Positions 1 through 7,194 of a DNA stretch of 10,861 bases are shown in pieces (the stretch's first letter is position 1; each line of letters begins with the position of its first letter). The notes beneath the pieces are model-generated. The model worked only from the letters and a program-made list of their open reading frames with translations. It was not told the origin of the DNA and made no database searches. Source of the DNA: a virus. Taxonomy: Duplodnaviria; Heunggongvirae; Uroviricota; Caudoviricetes. A program made the translations under genes and the position numbers. The stretch covers positions 1-10,861 of IMG/VR virus record IMGVR_UViG_2713896896_000006. One strand, 5' to 3'.

Positions 1-276
1 TGGATAACCTACAAAGGAAAGCTACCGGGAAGAATTACTGGTTCTCTGAAGACGCCACCGACGGCATTGCGGTCAGAAAAAGATGATATTGAATCGCCCA
101 TTGAAAAACTGGAGGGCAGCGTCGCTGATCTGAATAAAAAATTGTCGGTGCTGATTCCTTCTGAAGATGAAAAAAAACGCCGCGATGAGCAGTTTGCGGC
201 GTTTTACGATTATTGCATTGAAGTTACTCGCAGGAATTTTGTGAAGATTTTTGAGGAGGGTAAATCTCTTCAGTAA
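1..276 (+). CDS. Hypothetical protein, 3' end of an ORF that is open from the window edge (5' partial)
   Basis: Frame 1 is open from position 1 to a TAA at 274-276; the product is hydrophilic and charged, and the antisense frame is not protein-like. No family recognised. Confidence 0.4.
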   Translation, partial: WITYKGKLPGRITGSLKTPPTALRSEKDDIESPIEKLEGSVADLNKKLSVLIPSEDEKKRRDEQFAAFYDYCIEVTRRNFVKIFEEGKSLQ

Positions 277-484
277 GCTTATTGGCGGACGCTGCAATTA
301 ATTCAGGAAGGTCCGCAAGGTCATCTGTCAGTGGATATGATGAAAAATCGGCGGCAGTTCTGTTAAGAAGCGCTTTAACTAATTCCTTTTCCTTCTCCGG
401 CAACAAGTTGATTAGAGCTACGACTGCTTGCCTGAGTGCGATTAAATCAGCAAAAGTTTGTTTTGGTAGATTTGTGTAATCCAT
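224..484 (-). CDS. Hypothetical protein (86 aa), convergent with and overlapping the previous ORF by about 53 bp
   Basis: ATG at 482-484 preceded by a GAGG Shine-Dalgarno about 5 nt upstream on the minus strand; the non-overlapping part is protein-like. No family recognised. Confidence 0.4.
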   Translation of the reverse strand: MDYTNLPKQTFADLIALRQAVVALINLLPEKEKELVKALLNRTAADFSSYPLTDDLADLPELIAASANKLTEEIYPPQKSSQNSCE

Positions 485-597
485 AGTCGCCTCTGTGTTT
501 ATCAGATTGACATCCTCATCCCGCCAGTGCCCATCACTGGTGAGGTAAGATTTAACATATCCGGGGATTTGAAGCCGATAAATCCTGATAAATATCC

Positions 598-1131
598 ATG
601 AACGTAAAAATCAAATACGGCCTGTCAGCTGCCGTTCTGGCGCTGATTGCTGCAGGCGCGTCTGCTCCTCAAATACTTGACCAGTTTCTGGATGAAAAAG
701 AAGGTAACCACACAACGGCATACCGTGATGGTTCTGGCATATGGACCATCTGTCGTGGTGCCACAATGGTGGATGGTAAGCCCGTCATACCGGGAATGAA
801 GCTGTCGAAGGAAAAATGCGACCAGGTTAACGCTATTGAACGTGATAAGGCGCTGGCATGGGTGGATCGCAATATAAAAGTACCACTGACCGAACCACAA
901 AAAGCAGGTATTGCGTCATTTTGTCCCTATAACATTGGCCCCGGTAAGTGTTTCCCGTCGACGTTTTATAAGCGGCTGAATGCCGGTGATCGTAAAGGCG
1001 CATGCGAGGCGATTCGCTGGTGGATTAAGGACGGTGGCCGTGATTGCCGCATTCGTTCAAATAACTGTTACGGTCAGGTTATTCGTCGTGACCAGGAGAG
1101 TGCGCTGGTGTGCTGGGGGATCGACAGATAA
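598..1131 (+). CDS. Phage endolysin, T4-lysozyme-like (GH24) with an N-terminal signal or signal-anchor-release segment
   Basis: N-terminus MNVKIKYGLSAAVLALIAAGASA is a K-rich then hydrophobic Ala/Gly-rich segment; the E-x8-D-x5-T catalytic spacing (E...YRDGSGIWT) matches lysozyme R of phage 21 and the RrrD-type family; it sits directly upstream of Rz/Rz1. Confidence 0.85.
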   Translation: MNVKIKYGLSAAVLALIAAGASAPQILDQFLDEKEGNHTTAYRDGSGIWTICRGATMVDGKPVIPGMKLSKEKCDQVNAIERDKALAWVDRNIKVPLTEPQKAGIASFCPYNIGPGKCFPSTFYKRLNAGDRKGACEAIRWWIKDGGRDCRIRSNNCYGQVIRRDQESALVCWGIDR

Positions 1132-1219
1132 GCAGAATATTTTGCTGAAAAATGCCGTTTGCTCACACAAGCGGATAACACGATATTCTGCAAACTGGCA
1201 AAAGGAAGTGAATAAAAGC

Positions 1220-1262
1220 AAAAACCCCGTTTGTTGGCAGCAAGCGGGGTTTTGTTTTCTGC
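1220..1262 (+). terminator. Intrinsic-terminator-like hairpin (13-bp stem with one G-U pair, 7-nt loop, then a T-rich tract)
   Basis: AAAACCCCGTTTG / TTGGCAG / CAAGCGGGGTTTT followed by GTTTTCT, about 90 bp after the endolysin stop. Confidence 0.5.
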
Positions 1263-1287
1263 CCATGGGAAAGCTAAAGGAGAAAAC

Positions 1288-1425
1288 GTGTTTGATTTTA
1301 GCAAACTGATTCTGGAGATTCGAGTGATGGCTGAAAAATTATCCACCTGGAAGTTCATCCTTATCTGGCTGGTGTTTGTGGTTATGGGCTCCGGTTATTT
1401 CATCGGTCAGATACGCAGGTGGTGA
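1288..1425 (+). CDS. Small single-pass membrane peptide (about 45 aa from GTG 1288, or 32 aa from ATG 1327) between endolysin and Rz
   Basis: AAAGGAG Shine-Dalgarno 5 nt upstream of GTG 1288; one hydrophobic helix (FILIWLVFVVMGSGYFIG); its TGA at 1423-1425 lies 1 nt before the Rz ATG, suggesting translational coupling. Confidence 0.4.
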   Translation: MFDFSKLILEIRVMAEKLSTWKFILIWLVFVVMGSGYFIGQIRRW

Positions 1426-1426
1426 A

Positions 1427-1891
1427 ATGAACCGGATTCTGTATGGCGTGATTATTGTCCTGCTGATGGTCTGTAGTGCTCTGTGGCTGGCAACAGATCA
1501 TTACCGCGATAACGCCATTACCTACAAAACACAACGCGATGACAATGCCAGAGAGCTGAAACTGGCAGAGGCGATCATTACTGATATGCAGGTGCGCCAG
1601 CGTGACGTTGCTGCACTCGATGCAAAATATTCAAAGGAATTAGCTGATGCGAAAGCTGAAAATGATGCTCTGCGTGATGATATTGCCGCTGGTCGTCGTC
1701 GGTTGCGCATCAGAGCAGTCTGTCCAGCCGTGCGTGAAGCCACCGCCTCCTCCGGCGTGGATGATGCAACCAGCCCCCGACTGGCAGACACCGCTGAACG
1801 GGATTATTTCACCCTCAGAGACCGATTGATGACGATGCAGAAGCAACTGGAAGGGGCACAGCTATACATTCGTGAGCAATGCCTCAGATAA
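1427..1891 (+). CDS. Rz: Rz i-spanin (inner-membrane spanin subunit)
   Basis: Near-colinear match to lambda Rz (HYRDNAITYK..., DVAALDAKY.KELADAKAENDALRDD.AAGRRRL, SPRLADTAERDYFTLR.RL.TMQKQLEG); N-terminal TM helix; start moved to ATG 1427 with AGGTGGTGA upstream rather than the track's 1376. Confidence 0.9.
   Translation: MNRILYGVIIVLLMVCSALWLATDHYRDNAITYKTQRDDNARELKLAEAIITDMQVRQRDVAALDAKYSKELADAKAENDALRDDIAAGRRRLRIRAVCPAVREATASSGVDDATSPRLADTAERDYFTLRDRLMTMQKQLEGAQLYIREQCLR
1647..1829 (+). CDS. Rz1: Rz1 o-spanin lipoprotein, embedded in the +1 frame of Rz
   Basis: Matches lambda Rz1 (KLKMMLCVM.LPLVVVGC, CVKPPPPPAW.MQP.PDWQTPLNGIISPSE); lipobox VVGC; proline-rich mature region; nested-gene arrangement typical of Rz/Rz1. 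Confidence 0.85.
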   Translation: MRKLKMMLCVMILPLVVVGCASEQSVQPCVKPPPPPAWMMQPAPDWQTPLNGIISPSETD

Positions 1892-2208
1892 AAACCGGCC
1901 AAGGATAATCCGCTGAAGATTTGCCGGCGGCGAAAGAGAGCCAAGGGTTCAGCCTACGCCATTACTCCTGTCGATGCAATGCATTCAATGGATGCTTGAT
2001 TTATTTCTGTGCGCTATATCGTCGCTGTCTCCTGCATAAACTATGACCGTAACTCGACGGGGAACCCCTTCTGCGTGAGTGTGCGGGGGGGAAGAAACAG
2101 GACACTCACACAGATTCTTGTGGGCACGATGCTATTCCTTTCTGGATTATCCCGATGCCATTCATGCAGGGCGCTGTATCAGACGTTCGTCATGGCTGTC
2201 AGGCTGAC

Positions 2209-2280
2209 GGGTCCTCCCGGTGGGGTGGCCTGCCACGGGGCGGGAGCGTCGCGGAAAAAGGCTAGTTTTTGAAATTTCAT
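2209..2280 (+). other. Lambda-like cos site, copy 1 (cosQ-like GGGTCCT at 2209-2215; predicted cosN 12-mer GGGCGGGAGCGT at 2238-2249)
   Basis: Aligns with the recalled lambda right-end/left-end junction ACGGGTCCTTTCCGGTGATCCGACAGGTTACG|GGGCGGCGACCT|CGCGGG; sits between the lysis cassette and the Nu1-like gene, as in lambdoid genomes. Lambda sequence is from memory. Confidence 0.65.
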
Positions 2281-2283
2281 TCG

Positions 2284-2370
2284 TCATCACCACTACTGTA
2301 ATGGATTGATATTACAGTGGTTTTATTTTTATGGTGTCGATTTTGATTATTTTTTGTTCACCACTAACAC
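2284..2370 (+). repeat. cosB-like region: three ACCACT(A/G) elements (two direct, one inverted) between cosN and the small terminase start
   Basis: CACCACTACTG at about 2288, inverted ATTACAGTGG at about 2311-2320, CACCACTAACA at about 2359; position matches the lambda cosB R-site block. Confidence 0.45.
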
Positions 2371-2423
2371 CGTTTGCCTAAAGTTGTTCGCAAGATGCAT
2401 GTTTAAAACATTCCGGAGCGGGT

Positions 2424-2918
2424 ATGGATCGAGAGTTAAAAAATCTGACGCTGAATATCAGTCAACTGGCGGCACTGTCAGGTGTACATCGCCAGACTGC
2501 TGCGGCAAGGCTGCAAAATCTACCCGTTGCAGGGGGGCATGAAAGCAACCTCAAGCTTTATCGGGTGGTTGATATTGTGTCGGCATTTCTGGCATTACCA
2601 CCGCCGGTTGCAGAAGGCGAAATGGACGCGCATGAGCGCAAAGCCTGGTATCAGTCTGAACGTGAGCGTCTTAAGTTCGAACAGGAAACGGCACAACTCA
2701 TTCCGGCCAGTGATGTCAGACGGGAGTTTGCCATCTGGGCAAAAGCGGTCGTGCAGGTGCTGGAGACATTACCGGATATTCTGGAACGTGACTGTGGTCT
2801 GCAGCCTGCCGCTGTGAGCCGTGTTCAGTCCATTATTGATGATCTGCGCGATCAGATAGCCCTGCGGGTGACCGAAGCAGGTGCGGATGATGAGGAGGAA
2901 TTACAGCAGGAGGAGTAA
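2424..2918 (+). CDS. Terminase small subunit, lambda Nu1-like
   Basis: N-terminal HTH-like segment (LNISQLAALSGVHRQTAAARL) and acidic C-terminus comparable to Nu1; GGAG Shine-Dalgarno; stop overlaps the large terminase start (TAATG). Confidence 0.75.
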   Translation: MDRELKNLTLNISQLAALSGVHRQTAAARLQNLPVAGGHESNLKLYRVVDIVSAFLALPPPVAEGEMDAHERKAWYQSERERLKFEQETAQLIPASDVRREFAIWAKAVVQVLETLPDILERDCGLQPAAVSRVQSIIDDLRDQIALRVTEAGADDEEELQQEE

Positions 2919-3913
2919 TGCTGAATCAGGAAACCGCAAAGGCAGCACGAACCGATTCAGGTTATATCCTTCGCGCACCGAGACGAATGCGGGTTGCTGA
3001 TGCCGTTGCTCAGTATATGCGGGTGCCCATGGGGGCAGGGAACTCAGTCCCGTGGGATCCGCTGGTGGCACCGTATGTTATTGAGCCGATGAACTGCCTG
3101 GCCTCGCGTGAATACGACGCAGTGATATTTGTTGGCCCGGCACGAACCGGCAAGACTATCGGCCTGATTGACGGCTGGGTGATTTACAACGTGATTTGCG
3201 ATCCTGCGGATATGCTGATCATTCAGATGACGGAGGAAAAAGCCCGCGAACACTCCAAAAAACGACTCGCCAGAACGTTTCGCGTCAGCCCGGAAGTGGT
3301 CAGTCGCCTGAGTCCGAACAAAAATGACAACAACGTTTATGACAGAACATTCCTTGCTGGCAACTACCTGAAAATCGGCTGGCCGTCAGTCAATATCATG
3401 TCCTCATCAGATTATAAATGCGTGGCGCTGACGGATTATGACCGTTTTCCGGAAGATATTGATGGCGAGGGGGATGCTTTCTCTCTTGCCTCAAAACGTA
3501 CCACCACATTTATGTCCAGCGGTATGACGCTGGTGGAGAGTTCCCCCGGCAGGGATGTGAAGGATGTGAAATGGCGACGGACTTCACCGCATGAGGCTCC
3601 ACCAACCACGGGGATACTGTCGCTCTATAACCGTGGCGATCGCCGTCGCTGGTACTGGCCCTGTCCACACTGTGGTGAGTTTTTTCAGCCCTGCGGCGAT
3701 GTGGTTGCTGGTTTCCGTGATATTGCCGATCCCGTGCTGGCAAGTGAGGCGGCTTATATTCAGTGTCCTTCCTGTTCAGGACGGATTATGCCTGAACAAA
3801 AACGTGAGCTGAACGGACGTGGGGTCTGGTTGCGGGATGGTGAATCCATCAATGCGGATGGCAGTCGTTATGGTGATCCCCGACGCTCACGTATTGCGTC
3901 ATTCTGGATGTAG
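2918..3913 (+). pseudogene. Terminase large subunit (lambda gpA family), truncated to the N-terminal 331 aa
   Basis: Walker A-like VGPARTGKT; CPHCGE motif (WYWPCPHCGEFF versus lambda FHVACPHCGEEQ); tracks lambda gpA up to about residue 330 (RIASFWM versus VTFHIWTAY) then hits a stop; the remaining ~300 codons are absent and the integrase gene begins 160 bp later. Confidence 0.8.
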
Positions 3914-4074
3914 GGTACATTTCTTACCTGTTTTTATGTTCTGGTGTCGTTTTGTAGTCTTTTCAATGAGTTGTGATTTTTTGTGTTTCCTCTCTTTACT
4001 TGATAATGAGTTAGTTTATCGCTTGTTATCGACTTGAAAGGACTACATGACGGACTAAAAAATGAGGGCGATAG

Positions 4075-5313
4075 ATGCCGGTAAAGCCATTAACCGTGAC
4101 TGAAGTTAAGGGAATGAAACCACGTGAAAAGGACTATGCCGTTTATGATGGATTCGGTTTATTGCTGAATGTGAGTAAAGCTGGTGGGAAAGTGTGGCGT
4201 TTCCGTTATAGCCATCCGATAACGAAGAAACGGCAGACATACACGATAGGGCGTTTTCCTGAATTCTCACTCGCGGAAGCACGGGAAATACGTGATGAAC
4301 TTCGGCGAATGATTGCACGTGGAGTTGATCCAGTGACAGAGAAGAAAAATCGTAAAATTGAGATGTCACTAAAAAATCTACAAACATTTGAAGCTGTTGC
4401 TAATGCATGGATCGCTTTTAAAAAGGGATCGGAATTGCGGAAACCTACGCTGTATAATATCGAATATGAAGTATACAAATATCTTGTTCCTTTCTTTGGT
4501 AAGTACAGCATAGAGAAAATTACAGCGCCAGTAGCTATTAATGCTCTGGATGCCGTATCCGATAAGAATGCGTTGCAAAAAAAATTAATATCAAGATTAA
4601 ATGAAATTATGAATTACGCTGTAAATTGTGGAGCATTGAAAACGAATCCATTACTTAAGATAAAAACTGCATTCACAGGAAAGAAAAATAAATCATTAGC
4701 TGCACTACCTATTGAAAGATTGCCTGAATTTCTGAGCTGGTGGGATAGTGTGCCTCATAAGTATCAAATAGCTCACAATGCACTTTTATTCCAGATATTG
4801 ACAATGGTCAGGCCAGGTGAGGCGATTAAAGCAGAGTGGTCCGAGATTGATTTTGATTCTGGCTTGTGGATTATCCCCGCGCATAAAATGAAATGCCATC
4901 GTGAACATGTTGTGCCTCTCTCATCACAGGCTATTAGAATCCTAAGAACAATGCAGAAAATAAAAAGAGGGCGTTATATATTTTTTTCCTCCAGAACAAA
5001 AGATGCTCCTATGGGAAAGAATACTATCAATACCCCAATTGCTGCCAGCAAGTTCAAAGGGATTGTAACGTTACACGGTTTTCGTTCGATGTGGAGTACG
5101 CTTTTAAATGAGGAGGGTTTTAACCCTGATGTTATTGAGGCTGCATTAGCACATAAAAGTGGTGATAAAATAAGAGATATTTATAATAGAACTACTTATT
5201 TAGAACAACGCAAAATTATGATGCAATGGGTAGGAGATTTTTTTGATGAGGCGAGAAAAGGGGTAATTAATAGATCCGGTGGTAAGAAAGGTTTGAGAAT
5301 AGTAAATGGTTGA
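4075..5313 (+). CDS. int: Tyrosine recombinase, P4-type integrase
   Basis: N-terminal arm-binding-like domain (KDYAVYDGFGLLLNVSKAGGKVWRFRY...TIGRFPEFSLAEAR) and C-terminal catalytic region (HGFRSMWST...H..R..YNRTTY); GAGGG Shine-Dalgarno. Confidence 0.9.
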   Translation: MPVKPLTVTEVKGMKPREKDYAVYDGFGLLLNVSKAGGKVWRFRYSHPITKKRQTYTIGRFPEFSLAEAREIRDELRRMIARGVDPVTEKKNRKIEMSLKNLQTFEAVANAWIAFKKGSELRKPTLYNIEYEVYKYLVPFFGKYSIEKITAPVAINALDAVSDKNALQKKLISRLNEIMNYAVNCGALKTNPLLKIKTAFTGKKNKSLAALPIERLPEFLSWWDSVPHKYQIAHNALLFQILTMVRPGEAIKAEWSEIDFDSGLWIIPAHKMKCHREHVVPLSSQAIRILRTMQKIKRGRYIFFSSRTKDAPMGKNTINTPIAASKFKGIVTLHGFRSMWSTLLNEEGFNPDVIEAALAHKSGDKIRDIYNRTTYLEQRKIMMQWVGDFFDEARKGVINRSGGKKGLRIVNG

Positions 5314-5325
5314 GGAGTTCAGCAA

Positions 5326-5529
5326 ATGAATACCAATGAAGATATTTTATTTACTAAAGACGTAATGAAAATTTTGCGCTATGGGGCAATGAGCGCATTC
5401 ATCAATTTCTGGAAAGATGAAAATAATGGTTTTCCTCAACCGTTCAGAATTGGGCGGCGGCATACCTGGCACCGTAGAGATGTAGAGGCATGGTTAGATA
5501 AACAACGAGAACAGGCCAATCCCCACTAA
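5326..5529 (+). CDS. alpA: AlpA-family DNA-binding regulator/excisionase-like protein
   Basis: 67 aa, directly downstream of int; AlpA-like HTH with a ...HRRDVEAWLDKQ tail; GAGGAG Shine-Dalgarno. Confidence 0.7.
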   Translation: MNTNEDILFTKDVMKILRYGAMSAFINFWKDENNGFPQPFRIGRRHTWHRRDVEAWLDKQREQANPH

Positions 5530-5543
5530 TAATATCTTTCATA

Positions 5544-5568
5544 CCCCGCACGCAATGCGGGGTTTTTT
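5544..5568 (+). terminator. Intrinsic terminator after alpA
   Basis: CCCCGCA / CGCAA / TGCGGGG followed by TTTTTT. Confidence 0.8.
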
Positions 5569-5587
5569 GTATGTGAGGTAAAAAACG

Positions 5588-6169
5588 ATGAATAAAAATA
5601 TTGCCGTGACGGGCAAGGGGTACGCTCGTTCAGTAAAAAAATTCTGCGATATTCGTGATCTTGTCGTTCTGCGCTTTGATGGCGTGGATGTTCGTGTGGT
5701 GTATCTGAACGGCGATCCGTGGTTTGTTGCAAAGGATGTTTGTGAAGCTCTGGAAATAAGCAACTCACGCGATGCTCTAAAAGCTCTGGATGTGGATGAG
5801 AAGAATACCGTCGCTTTAAGCTACGGTATTCGCGGAAATCCAAATCATAGCGTCGTTTCTGAATCTGGTTTTTACAAGCTGATCGCCAGAAGTCGCAAAG
5901 CTGTTACTCCTGGCACGTTCGCCCATCGTTTCAGTAACTGGGTATTCAGGAATGTGATACCAGGTATCAGAAAAACGGGGGCTTATGGTATCCCGTGGGG
6001 TGCATTACAGGATTTTTCCCGCCGTAAAGAGCAATATCAAATAAGTGCCAGCGAGAAGGGGAGGGAGCTACAGGCATGTAAGCGCAAAAAGCGTGAGCTG
6101 GAGGAAGAAGAAAAAAGGCTGATACGTGAATATCAGCCTGAGTTTTACTTTGGTGAGCGTATTCAGTAA
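5588..6169 (+). CDS. Bro-N domain protein (antirepressor-like)
   Basis: N-terminal Bro-N signature (FDGVDVRVVYLNGDPWFVAKDVCEALEI...VVSESGFYKLIARSRKA) with a charged, coiled-coil-like C-terminus; GAGGT Shine-Dalgarno. Confidence 0.7.
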   Translation: MNKNIAVTGKGYARSVKKFCDIRDLVVLRFDGVDVRVVYLNGDPWFVAKDVCEALEISNSRDALKALDVDEKNTVALSYGIRGNPNHSVVSESGFYKLIARSRKAVTPGTFAHRFSNWVFRNVIPGIRKTGAYGIPWGALQDFSRRKEQYQISASEKGRELQACKRKKRELEEEEKRLIREYQPEFYFGERIQ

Positions 6170-6344
6170 CCACGCGCATTGCTGATTATACGATACATCG
6201 TGTTAACCGGGAAGCTCCCCACCAGCAAGGCAAAATCTTCTGCTAAAAAATGACATATGAGCAGCCGTCCTGAAAGCATGAAGTTTTGCAGGAATAGATG
6301 CTGCAGTTCTTTATTTTATCAATTGGACTTTAGATAAAAGTAAA

Positions 6345-6380
6345 GGCGACCGAGGTGGTCGCCAGTTTTATTTTTATATT
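6345..6380. terminator. Bidirectional intrinsic terminator between the convergent Bro-N and membrane-protein genes
   Basis: GGCGACC / GAGGT / GGTCGCC flanked by an A-rich run upstream and a T-rich run downstream. Confidence 0.7.
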
Positions 6381-6385
6381 TTTCC

Positions 6386-6829
6386 CTATTGCATCAACAA
6401 TGAATGTCTTATCCACATTACGAGGGATGGAATAATTTTTATGTATCCGCCATATGCCCATATAATGGTGCCAAAAACAGTTAGTCCAACCCCGAGTACT
6501 TCAGCTTTTATTTCCTCTCTGACCTCAACTCGAGCTTTAGCTAAGTTTTCTTCTCGTATCTTTTGTGATTCTTCCGCAGACAATGGCGGGCCAGTTACGC
6601 CACTGCGTGAATTAATTTCAGCTTCGCGATTAGATAATTTTTTTAAAGTTGTGAACTTGATTGTATACAACAATCCAAAAACTGAAATAATTGCACCTGA
6701 GCTGGCGAATAGATTCATATCATTAAGATATTGGCCGAACAAAAAGCTTGCTCCACAAAAAACACATAATATGGCAATGGATGTTTTTGCACCGAGTATT
6801 TTTAGTAATATTGTTCTAAATCTCTTCAT
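6386..6829 (-). CDS. Hypothetical multi-pass membrane protein (147 aa)
   Basis: Three to four hydrophobic helices around a charged central loop (SAEESQKIREENLAKARVEVREEIKAE); AT-rich codon usage; second gene of a minus-strand pair after the ribbon-helix-helix gene. No family recognised. Confidence 0.6.
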   Translation of the reverse strand: MKRFRTILLKILGAKTSIAILCVFCGASFLFGQYLNDMNLFASSGAIISVFGLLYTIKFTTLKKLSNREAEINSRSGVTGPPLSAEESQKIREENLAKARVEVREEIKAEVLGVGLTVFGTIIWAYGGYIKIIPSLVMWIRHSLLMQ

Positions 6830-6860
6830 TGTTAATATATCCTATCATAGAAGTAGTAAT

Positions 6861-7055
6861 TCACCCCTTAGGTTCGATACCGCGCCGCTTTAGTTCGGAG
6901 CGCCCTAACTCTTTAAGCCAGTTAGCAAGGCTTACACCATCATTATTAGCCTCGCTATCAAACTGTTCTTTCAGTTCTGGAGCTATACGCATATGGAAAG
7001 GGGGAGCCTTTCCTGTCCCTTTGGGTTTTTTATCGCGTTTAATTATTGTTGACAT
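6861..7055 (-). CDS. Ribbon-helix-helix (Arc/CopG-like) DNA-binding protein, candidate island repressor
   Basis: Basic N-tail then a beta-strand/helix pattern (FHMRIAPELKEQFDSEANNDGVSLANWLKEL) typical of RHH proteins; AGGTG Shine-Dalgarno; start codon lies inside the palindromic operator region. Confidence 0.6.
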   Translation of the reverse strand: MSTIIKRDKKPKGTGKAPPFHMRIAPELKEQFDSEANNDGVSLANWLKELGRSELKRRGIEPKG

Positions 7056-7113
7056 GTGTACACCTATGGCGTTATGTTTTCATTCGATAGGTGTACACAT
7101 TAACACGTGTGCA
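7049..7113 (+). promoter_or_regulatory. Divergent switch region: rightward sigma70-like promoter overlapped by palindromic operators
   Basis: -35 TTGACA at 7049-7054, 18-bp spacer, -10-like TATGTT; self-complementary GTGTACAC at 7056-7063 and 7091-7098 (12-bp perfect inverted arms 19 bp apart) and ACACGTGT at 7103-7110. Confidence 0.55.
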
Positions 7114-7194
7114 TTTAATAACGCAACGCCCCGCAGTGCTGGAACACATGCAGGGCGTCTAACCACCAACGATAGCAACAGTATCGAGGTAGCT

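Follow-up and report, generated by a model that had tools for sequence, protein, structure and literature searches.

Two cos copies with common cosQ and cosN and different putative cosB regions in a lambdoid prophage carrying a satellite island

Staphylococcal cos-type islands such as SaPIbov5 carry the helper cos together with a capsid-protein homolog, and their helpers have HNH-dependent terminases. For phages lambda and 21, cosB and the N-terminus of the small terminase Nu1 are reported in work of the Feiss laboratory to co-vary while cosN is shared. In lambda cosB the elements run R3-I1-R2-R1; R2 is inverted, and R3 occupies bp 50–65 (PMC9026076). The phage-inducible chromosomal island (PICI) EcCICFT073 has two cos sites, with cosQ and cosN like those of its helper and a cosB that differs; the island protein Rpp, encoded just after cos, serves only one of the two (PMC6739421, PMC9026076). 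Helper-embedded PICIs (HE-PICIs) are satellites that have inserted into late genes of a prophage, gene A among them (Tommasini, Mageeney & Williams 2023, PMC10111431). Here we describe two cos copies in a 10,861-nt stretch of viral DNA (Caudoviricetes; IMG/VR record IMGVR_UViG_2713896896_000006, positions 1 to 10,861), the whole of which is referred to as the window. The window is the late region of a lambda-like, lambdoid Escherichia coli prophage whose large terminase (TerL) gene is interrupted by a satellite island.

Copy 1 (2209–2423) is likely to be the working cos of a mEp460/Ayreon-type lambdoid prophage and copy 2 (10672–10861) the cos of a PICI-type satellite, the two sharing the cutting step and differing in initiation specificity. 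A first-pass annotation of this DNA had anticipated shared cleavage with different initiation specificity. The comparisons given below fit that proposal, as cosQ and cosN are common to both copies and the class of cosB tracks the type of the small terminase (TerS) at about 130 loci. The central idea of shared cosQ and cosN with a different cosB is already published for EcCICFT073 and for HE-PICIs, and the gain here is one of detail, not of concept. The locus is a case of a satellite nested in the terminase gene of its helper, in which the TerL cutting signals are kept and the recognition region appears to have been swapped as a cassette. It also provides a first sequence-level cosB map for phages with DUF1441 small terminases (mEp460, Ayreon, cdtI and several Stx phages), a common group in E. 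coli that carries toxin genes. In the proposed map, cosB consists of R3, an integration host factor (IHF) site, R2 and R1, their motifs differing by class; the map would predict which helper phages can mobilise such islands.

Cutting signals of the two copies and the flank of copy 2

The two copies form a direct repeat of 72 nt (2209–2280 and 10672–10743) with 90% identity. Positions within cos are numbered from the first base of cosN, bp 1 being 2238 in copy 1 and 10701 in copy 2. Both copies were expected to share cosQ and cosN, and this is borne out by the repeat, in which the cosQ heptamer GGGTCCT and the cosN GGGCGGGAGCGT are identical (Table 1). The distance from cosQ to cosN is 29 nt in both copies (29–30 nt to the nick), against 30 nt in lambda. 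GGGCGGGAGCGT aligns with lambda cosN GGGCGGCGACCT at 8/12 bases and has the same flanks, ACG before and CGCGG after (ACG/GGGCGG.../CGCGG). It is predicted to yield 12-nt 5′ cohesive ends; the genome records of phages cdtI and Tritos start exactly at bp 1 of cosN. The two copies part after bp 43 (2280 and 10743), with divergence from bp 44, where lambda cosB starts. cosQ and cosN are identical across the cosB classes described in the next section. In the Stx-phage relatives Stx2_499 and VT1-Sakai (L208 and L209, about 925–945), the same cosQ and cos flanks enclose a cosN core GGGCGGGCGG(G) before CGCGG; the 10–11 nt in place of 12 suggests a different cohesive-end length or sequence in this branch.

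The flank of copy 2 had been described as unrelated and AT-rich. This description has to be dropped, as 10701–10861 of the window is 95–96% identical to bp 1–161 of Tritos and cdtI (93% to HannyBb) and its IHF-consensus match lies in the same register and on the same strand as that of copy 1. An island-specific cosB in the style of Rpp-type PICIs was also considered for this flank and rejected, the sequence being the native cosB of cdtI, Tritos and HannyBb. In cdtI, a DUF1441 small terminase of 179 residues starts at bp 185 and terL is next. The island copies track the cdtI sequence to about bp 204, and are followed by a terminator-like hairpin and unrelated sequence; no open reading frame (ORF) was found for about 350 bp after copy 2 in the island copies. 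Since the island follows cdtI through the first ~6 TerS codons and then breaks off, copy 2 appears to be a complete cdtI-type cos from which the cognate TerS gene has been deleted. This terminase, TerS-B, is encoded neither in the island nor in the helper of the window. It is 42% identical to TerS-A of the prophage, with a very different N-terminal domain and a similar central part. The first of the two options in the earlier annotation, a different small terminase or a redirected helper terminase for copy 2, is consistent with these results, and the candidate can now be named as the cdtI-type DUF1441 TerS.

The combination of a common cosQ, cosN and first 43 bp with a foreign cosB and no cognate TerS suggests that the chemistry of cutting is shared and the specificity of initiation is different. 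In the mechanism proposed, the N-terminal winged helix of TerS-A would read R3, R2 and R1 and place the gpA-type TerL on cosN, with IHF bending the DNA between the R elements. TerL itself would read the shared part, namely cosQ, cosN and the first 43 bp. Copy 2 retains the part that TerL would read and carries the complete cosB of another allele group (cdtI/Tritos/HannyBb) within this phage family. It would most likely let cdtI-type helpers package the island directly; in NZ_CP043414, the island family is resident in a helper of this type (class B).

The alternative which survives best is that copy 2 is a non-functional relic, carried passively. The late zone would have taken a cos-to-capsid piece of a cdtI-type phage and lost TerS-TerL-portal, and the island would be packaged from a third cos with its own TerS paralog. 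We regard this as the less probable explanation, but one of substance. PICI late zones are reported to capture helper late genes (PMC10111431), and cos2 of EcCICFT073 is likewise dispensable (PMC6739421). The prevalence of the orphan site was assessed in 5426 complete E. coli genomes, and resident cos-B loci were looked for in the best 60 island-bearing genomes. The orphan cos-B junction was present in 163/5426 and cdtI-type cos with TerS-B in 763/5426 (14%). A second cos-B-like locus was found in 13/60 island-bearing genomes, which does not differ significantly from the 14% baseline. The other 47/60 are without one, so that the cognate TerS-B is usually not resident; this favours a relic and weighs against direct packaging by cdtI-type helpers. 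The same is true of the orphan copies themselves, which represent one island lineage with one deletion junction, and whose conservation is no proof of selection. What stands against a relic is that the deletion took the gene and spared the entire cis site. In the window, the site is intact from cosQ through cosN and all of cosB to the TerS start, and retains the high identity to working phages given above; moreover, cdtI-type helpers are common and the island family resides in them.

In one island orphan copy, cosQ reads GGGGCCT and not GGGTCCT (L002 14664–14670). This mutation is in line with a relic and hints that the copy is not under strict constraint everywhere, which again counts against a functional copy 2. 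Nucleotide diversity was tried as a test of selection on orphan cos-B and set aside as uninformative, since 5/6 usable loci belong to one lineage with one junction, the remaining locus being a disrupted phage.

Putative cosB elements of copy 1 and the flank classes

Viral contigs were scanned for exact matches to a cosN 30-mer, and the loci were sorted by their downstream flank. Six flank classes were compared, each with a DUF1441 gene at about bp 187–197: class A (the window and mEp460), class B (cdtI type), class C (the helper in NZ_CP099721), class D (inside islands and in a few phages), class E (Stx2_499 and VT1-Sakai) and class F (phage 1720a-02). In class A, the conserved features are TCACCACT at bp 50–57, a palindrome ACTGTAAT-N8-ATTACAGT, a T tract, GGTGTCGA at bp 96–103 (45/54 relatives) and TCA(T/C)CACT at bp 121–128. 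The region after copy 1 had been assigned to the position of lambda cosB, and this assignment stands, the first ACCACT (bp 52–58) falling inside the lambda R3 position. The flank of copy 1 would thus have the lambda-like order R3, IHF-type site, inverted R2 and R1.

A short element occurs at the same three positions, in + / − / + orientation, in classes A, C, D, E and F. Written as R3, R2 (reverse complement) and R1, the elements are TCACCACT, TCGACACC and TCATCACT in class A; TCACCACC, TCGACACT and TCATCACT in class F; CCATCATC, TCGACAT and TCGACATC in class C; TCATCATC, TTAACAT and TCAACAT in class D; and TCATCATC, CCATCATC and TCGACATC in class E. The inverted arm of R2 accordingly reads ATGTCGAA in class C, ATGTTAA in class D and AGTGTCGA in class F. 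At the seventh base, classes A and F have C in each of their three elements, and classes C, D and E have T. The three elements vary jointly by class, as ..CAC(T/C) in A and F and ..CAT in C, D and E. N-terminal features (NIS...GGHESNLKLY) are common to the class A and class F small terminases and are not found in those of C, D and E. Exact matches to the IHF consensus WATCAANNNNTTR number 3 in the window, against 0.7 expected. Two of the three are at near-equal distance after cosN on the minus strand, at bp 62–74 in copy 1 (2299–2311) and bp 64–76 in copy 2 (10764–10776). The ATTGAT core of the IHF-type site is kept in most cosB classes and degraded in D and E.

The class of cosB was compared with the type of the TerS DNA-binding domain at the ~130 loci (unique fragments). 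Class A paired with its own type at 47/47 loci, class C at 20/21 and class D at 30/30; of the class B loci, 17 had TerS-B and 17 were orphan. Over 78% of their length, the genomes of Ayreon (class A) and cdtI (class B) show 96% identity (PMC5764929). This near-identity, taken together with the pairing of cosB class and TerS type, suggests that cosB and the TerS N-terminus behave as a swappable cassette. The situation is similar to the specificity swaps between lambda and 21, in which near-identical phages differ in a cassette of cosB and the TerS DNA-binding domain and keep cosQ and cosN. It differs in that the TerS family is another one, at least six cosB classes are present and specificity is here read from sequence.

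Several points count against this assignment. The third cos of the island in NZ_CP043414 has a class-A-like cosB adjoining a class-D-type TerS, so that the pairing appears strong, not absolute, and these elements evidently recombine. Other parts of the window contain 8 further matches to the motif TCRNCACY. The predicted recognition helix RQTAAARL is common to TerS-A and TerS-D though their R motifs differ. Finally, the elements taken as R3, R2 and R1 were assigned post hoc.

Compared with lambda cos, copy 1 has the same cosQ heptamer, an R3-like element at bp 50–57 followed by an IHF-consensus match and by inverted and direct elements, a TerS start at bp 187 (bp 191 in lambda) and a gpA-family TerL. 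The R elements, however, are ~8 bp long and unrelated in sequence to the 16-bp R boxes of lambda, and the R3–R2 distance is ~46 bp in place of ~58. The TerS also differs, being a Pfam DUF1441 protein with no phmmer match to Nu1 and with weak profile and fold similarity.

Three ACCACT(A/G) elements had been noticed after copy 1 and not after copy 2. They are present as stated, at 2289–2295 (+), 2315–2321 (−, inverted) and 2360–2366 (+), with 0 in the copy-2 flank. The second is inverted, and the triple as such is marginal. In the whole window, 4 ACCACTR are found against 1.65 expected, a number attained in 20/200 shuffles (10%). When the 174-nt cosB was shuffled with its dinucleotides preserved, 4.3% of the shuffles had a G+C-containing hexamer present three times or more (p ~0.04). 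By itself, the ACCACT triple is weak evidence, barely above chance. Of 54 unique homologous class A cos regions, 38 retain ACCACT at the first site, 25 at the second and only 5 at the third; most relatives have ATCACT at the last. With such uneven conservation, the three are not equivalent conserved sites.

The earlier interpretation of these elements as small-terminase sites is therefore retained only in part. The first and third ACCACT may be taken as the cores of R3 and R1. The middle one, which is the most variable and is absent from phage 1720a-02 (class F), is probably spacer inside the IHF-type site and not a terminase site. A stricter reading, in which the three heptamers are equivalent small-terminase sites R3, R2 and R1 that set the specificity of copy 1, is unlikely. 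Their +, −, + order is that of lambda R3/R2/R1 (PMC9026076), the first is at the R3 position, and in class C the equivalent positions read ACCAT and ATGGT, so that the arms change jointly. But at the second site the CC/GG positions vary uncompensated, the element is missing from 1720a-02 despite the same R-motif type as in the window, and it is placed within the IHF-type site, with the core on one side and the A/T tract on the other. These features, with the counts at sites 2 and 3 and the marginal p value, favour the assignment in which only the first and third elements belong to R sites.

The island, its third cos and its relation to known satellites

The terL reading frame is broken by the island at ~3911, at codon 331, and a TAG stop arises at the junction; the intact gene could be rebuilt from attL and attR. 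Near-identical islands are ~10.8 kb long. The island is co-oriented with terL and its core genes are all on the plus strand. In full-length islands from complete E. coli genomes, a small ORF lies past the window end, together with a gene that fuses a ClpP protease to the major capsid protein, a second DUF1441 gene and, in most cases, an ORF of 93 codons; the remainder of terL and the portal gene come after these. The same island type is found in helpers of class A (the window and NZ_AP040249), class C (NZ_CP099721) and class B (NZ_CP043414).

A third cos, with cosN GGGCGGGAGCGG (one mismatch), lies directly upstream of the island DUF1441 gene in the near-identical islands (Table 1). The island TerS paralog is 68% identical to the helper TerS. 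It has a similar central region, a D-type N-terminal domain and a replaced tail of the last ~17 residues (...SRMVKNDVVNEVAKQA); the few phages with the same D-type N-terminal domain and cosB keep the helper-type acidic tail and have terL next. The gene after the paralog is the 93-codon ORF (orf93, phrog_1561). When the paralog and orf93 were compared by phmmer with PDB sequences, no Nu1 or Rpp match was obtained; orf93 had no PDB match at all, and a profile search gave only a weak helix-turn-helix (HTH) match. A terminator-like G+C hairpin with a T run directly precedes both island cos copies and ends 2–3 nt before cosQ (window 10642–10668; L002 17175–17200), and is not seen before the prophage cos.

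The paralog raises the question of whether copy 2 is read by a redirected terminase, an island protein (e.g. the tail-replaced TerS paralog or some other small protein) forming a mixed complex with the helper TerS in the manner of Rpp in EcCICFT073. There is precedent for such redirection (PMC6739421, PMC9026076), and the replaced tail of the paralog, when set against the phage versions with a helper-type tail, would suit it. As an account of copy 2 it is nonetheless quite unlikely. The paralog sits behind a different cos of its own (class D or A-like) and not behind copy 2, the ~350 bp after copy 2 are free of ORFs, and the island proteins tested show no sequence match to RppC. The natural cognate TerS for the cosB of copy 2 is, moreover, already present in cdtI-type phages.

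A packaging scheme with two keys can be put forward tentatively, as a possibility well short of probable. The orphan cdtI-type cos would serve any cdtI-type helper without an island factor. The second cos, with the tail-replaced TerS paralog, would redirect the terminase through co-assembly with the resident DUF1441 TerS, the paralog being an Rpp analogue evolved from a helper TerS. The differences in R motifs and wing would then amount to a DUF1441 specificity code. Most of this system is outside the window.

The island resembles EcCICFT073-type cos PICIs in its helper-matching cosQ and cosN with a different cosB, two cos per island (in full-length relatives), a cos after the replication module and a TerS-like gene directly downstream of one cos. 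Also common to both are int, an alpA-like gene, a replication module with iterons, unidirectional core genes and the size (~10.8 kb, the type being 10–20 kb). An rpp gene right after cos was not found, either as a homolog by sequence in the gene after the third cos or as any ORF in the ~350 bp after copy 2. It differs further in having a full-length DUF1441 TerS paralog in place of Rpp, in helpers that use a DUF1441 TerS and not Nu1, and in a window cosB which is not island-specific but native to another phage lineage.

With HE-PICIs the island shares int-alpA, Bro-N, replication and late zones, captured late genes (capsid) and a cos ~90% identical to that of the helper. The published gene-A sites, however, are in Terminase_1-family genes (A:Terminase_1:132 and :245/246), whereas the interrupted gene here is a gpA-type terL, and the published model element is without terS (PMC10111431). 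Neither the att core CTGGATG[G/T]AGGG nor the GpA profile name appears in the text or supplements of that study, which covers 14 att sites. Like SaPIbov5, the satellite relies on a helper-type cos and encodes a major capsid homolog (here in the near-identical islands); it differs in belonging to another phylum and in a cos that does not match the cosB of the resident helper.

Small terminase, prophage context and other features of the window

The product of 2424–2918 belongs to Pfam DUF1441 and matches PHROG 141 ('terminase small subunit') with E 7e-74. PADLOC and NCBIfam searches gave no match, and a phmmer search against PDB sequences gave none to Nu1 or Rpp chains. By hhalign with a small profile, residues 10–52 align to Nu1 residues 3–47 with 33% identity (E 0.023). 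A single-sequence AlphaFold2 (AF2) model was discarded owing to its low confidence (pLDDT, the predicted local distance difference test score, of 66, with the N-terminus below 50), and the model based on a multiple sequence alignment of 46 homologs was used instead. This model has pLDDT 81 and an N-terminus of strand-helix-helix-wing-helix (pLDDT ~80). Its top Foldseek match in PDB is the lambda TerS N-terminal domain (6hn7_B, prob 0.99, E 0.055); MerR-type winged-helix proteins come next, and RppC is at ranks 9 and 12. Copy 1 had been placed upstream of a Nu1-like gene, a placement which the PHROG assignment and the best PDB match support. The match to Nu1 is weak by both E values and has no counterpart in the phmmer search, and this counts against the mechanism proposed above. 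'Nu1-like' appears a reasonable name, based on position, fold and annotation and not on clear sequence homology.

The terminase genes of the window are nearest to those of mEp460, Ayreon, phi458 and vB_EcoS-569R4, with 96–99% identity. The terL fragment is 75% identical to cdtI TerL (311 aligned residues of the N-terminal fragment). Upstream are the lysis genes, the last of which, Rz-like, is followed by a non-coding stretch before the DUF1441 gene. The coordinates of all features are collected in Table 1.

Table 1. Coordinates of cos elements, genes and island features (window positions unless a locus handle is given)
Feature	Position	Strand	Remarks
Lysozyme gene	598–1131		
Rz-like gene	1427–1891		Followed by non-coding stretch before DUF1441 gene
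cosQ, prophage copy, GGGTCCT	2209–2215	+	Identical to lambda heptamer
cosN GGGCGGGAGCGT, 12 nt, prophage copy	2238–2249	+	Putative nick sites
Post-cosN segment common to both copies, bp 13–43	2250–2280	+	At lambda I2 position; putative function, from position only
R3-like TCACCACT, bp 50–57	2287–2294	+	Lambda R3 position (PMC9026076); conserved in class A; holds first ACCACT
IHF-consensus core TATCAATCCATTA, bp 62–74, I1-like; T-rich tract 2321–2330	2299–2311	−	Exact WATCAANNNNTTR match
Second ACCACT, inverted; right arm of palindrome ACTGTAAT-N8-ATTACAGT	2315–2321	−	CCAC part kept in 25/54 relatives
R2-like GGTGTCGA (reverse complement TCGACACC), bp 96–103, inverted	2333–2340	−	Kept in 45/54 relatives
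R1-like TCACCACT, bp 121–128	2358–2365	+	Holds third ACCACT; most relatives TCATCACT
Small terminase TerS-A, DUF1441 family	2424–2918	+	ATG at bp 187 (lambda Nu1: bp 191)
Large terminase, N-terminal 331 codons, gpA-type	2918–3913	+	Pfam GpA_ATPase; alignment with intact mEp460 terL
attL core CTGGATG(T/G)AGGG	3904–3917	+	Alignment of intact mEp460 terL, attL and attR (right junction of near-identical island)
Satellite body	4075–10631	+	Window annotation and near-identical islands
Tyrosine integrase	4075–5313	+	
Small HTH/AlpA-like protein	5326–5529	+	Weak HTH_17
Bro-N protein	5588–6169	+	
Icd-like protein	7198–7401	+	
RepA-type helicase	8344–9759	+	
Iterons	9757–9951		Directly after RepA-type helicase gene
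Single-stranded DNA-binding protein (SSB)	10209–10631	+	
cosQ, island copy, GGGTCCT	10672–10678	+	Identical to lambda heptamer
cosN GGGCGGGAGCGT, 12 nt, island copy	10701–10712	+	
Class B cosB (cdtI/Tritos/HannyBb type), continues past window end	10744–10861	+	IHF core 10764–10776 (−); TTTTCACCTG at 10794–10803
Third cos and island TerS paralog	L002 17190–17910; L001 19850–20571; L211 20880–21582		Outside window; L211: class-A-like cosB by class-D-type TerS

That the first two ACCACT are merely the outer ends of a hairpin ACTACTGTAAT...ATTACAGTGGT with a T run, an intrinsic terminator or DNA cruciform between lysis and packaging genes and no protein sites, is the least likely of the alternatives: a terminator scan does flag 2292–2321 plus TTTTATTTTT, the RNA fold is −13.9 kcal/mol and the DNA fold has z = −2.1, the inner 8-bp palindrome is kept in 48–54 of 54 relatives and both arms are changed in NZ_CP043414 (TTGTA...TACAA), but the stem has 3 G-C pairs only, 9/200 shuffles fold equally well, the outer pairs are not maintained among relatives, the loop is an exact IHF consensus, and classes D and F have R3, R2, R1 and the T tract and no comparable hairpin there.

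Rfam and tRNA scans of the window gave no matches, and PADLOC and NCBIfam searches with the island cargo ORFs gave nothing. Two minus-strand ORFs are present in the variable zone of the island, at 6386–6829 (147 aa; no match in Pfam, PADLOC or NCBIfam) and 6861–7055 (64 aa; weak HicB-like match). They may be cargo genes, because this zone differs between otherwise similar islands. The iteron array contains AAAAAGTGGGTAGTAAAAGTGGGGAG twice, 168 bp apart, together with AAAGTGGGGA variants, and is probably the replication origin of the island.

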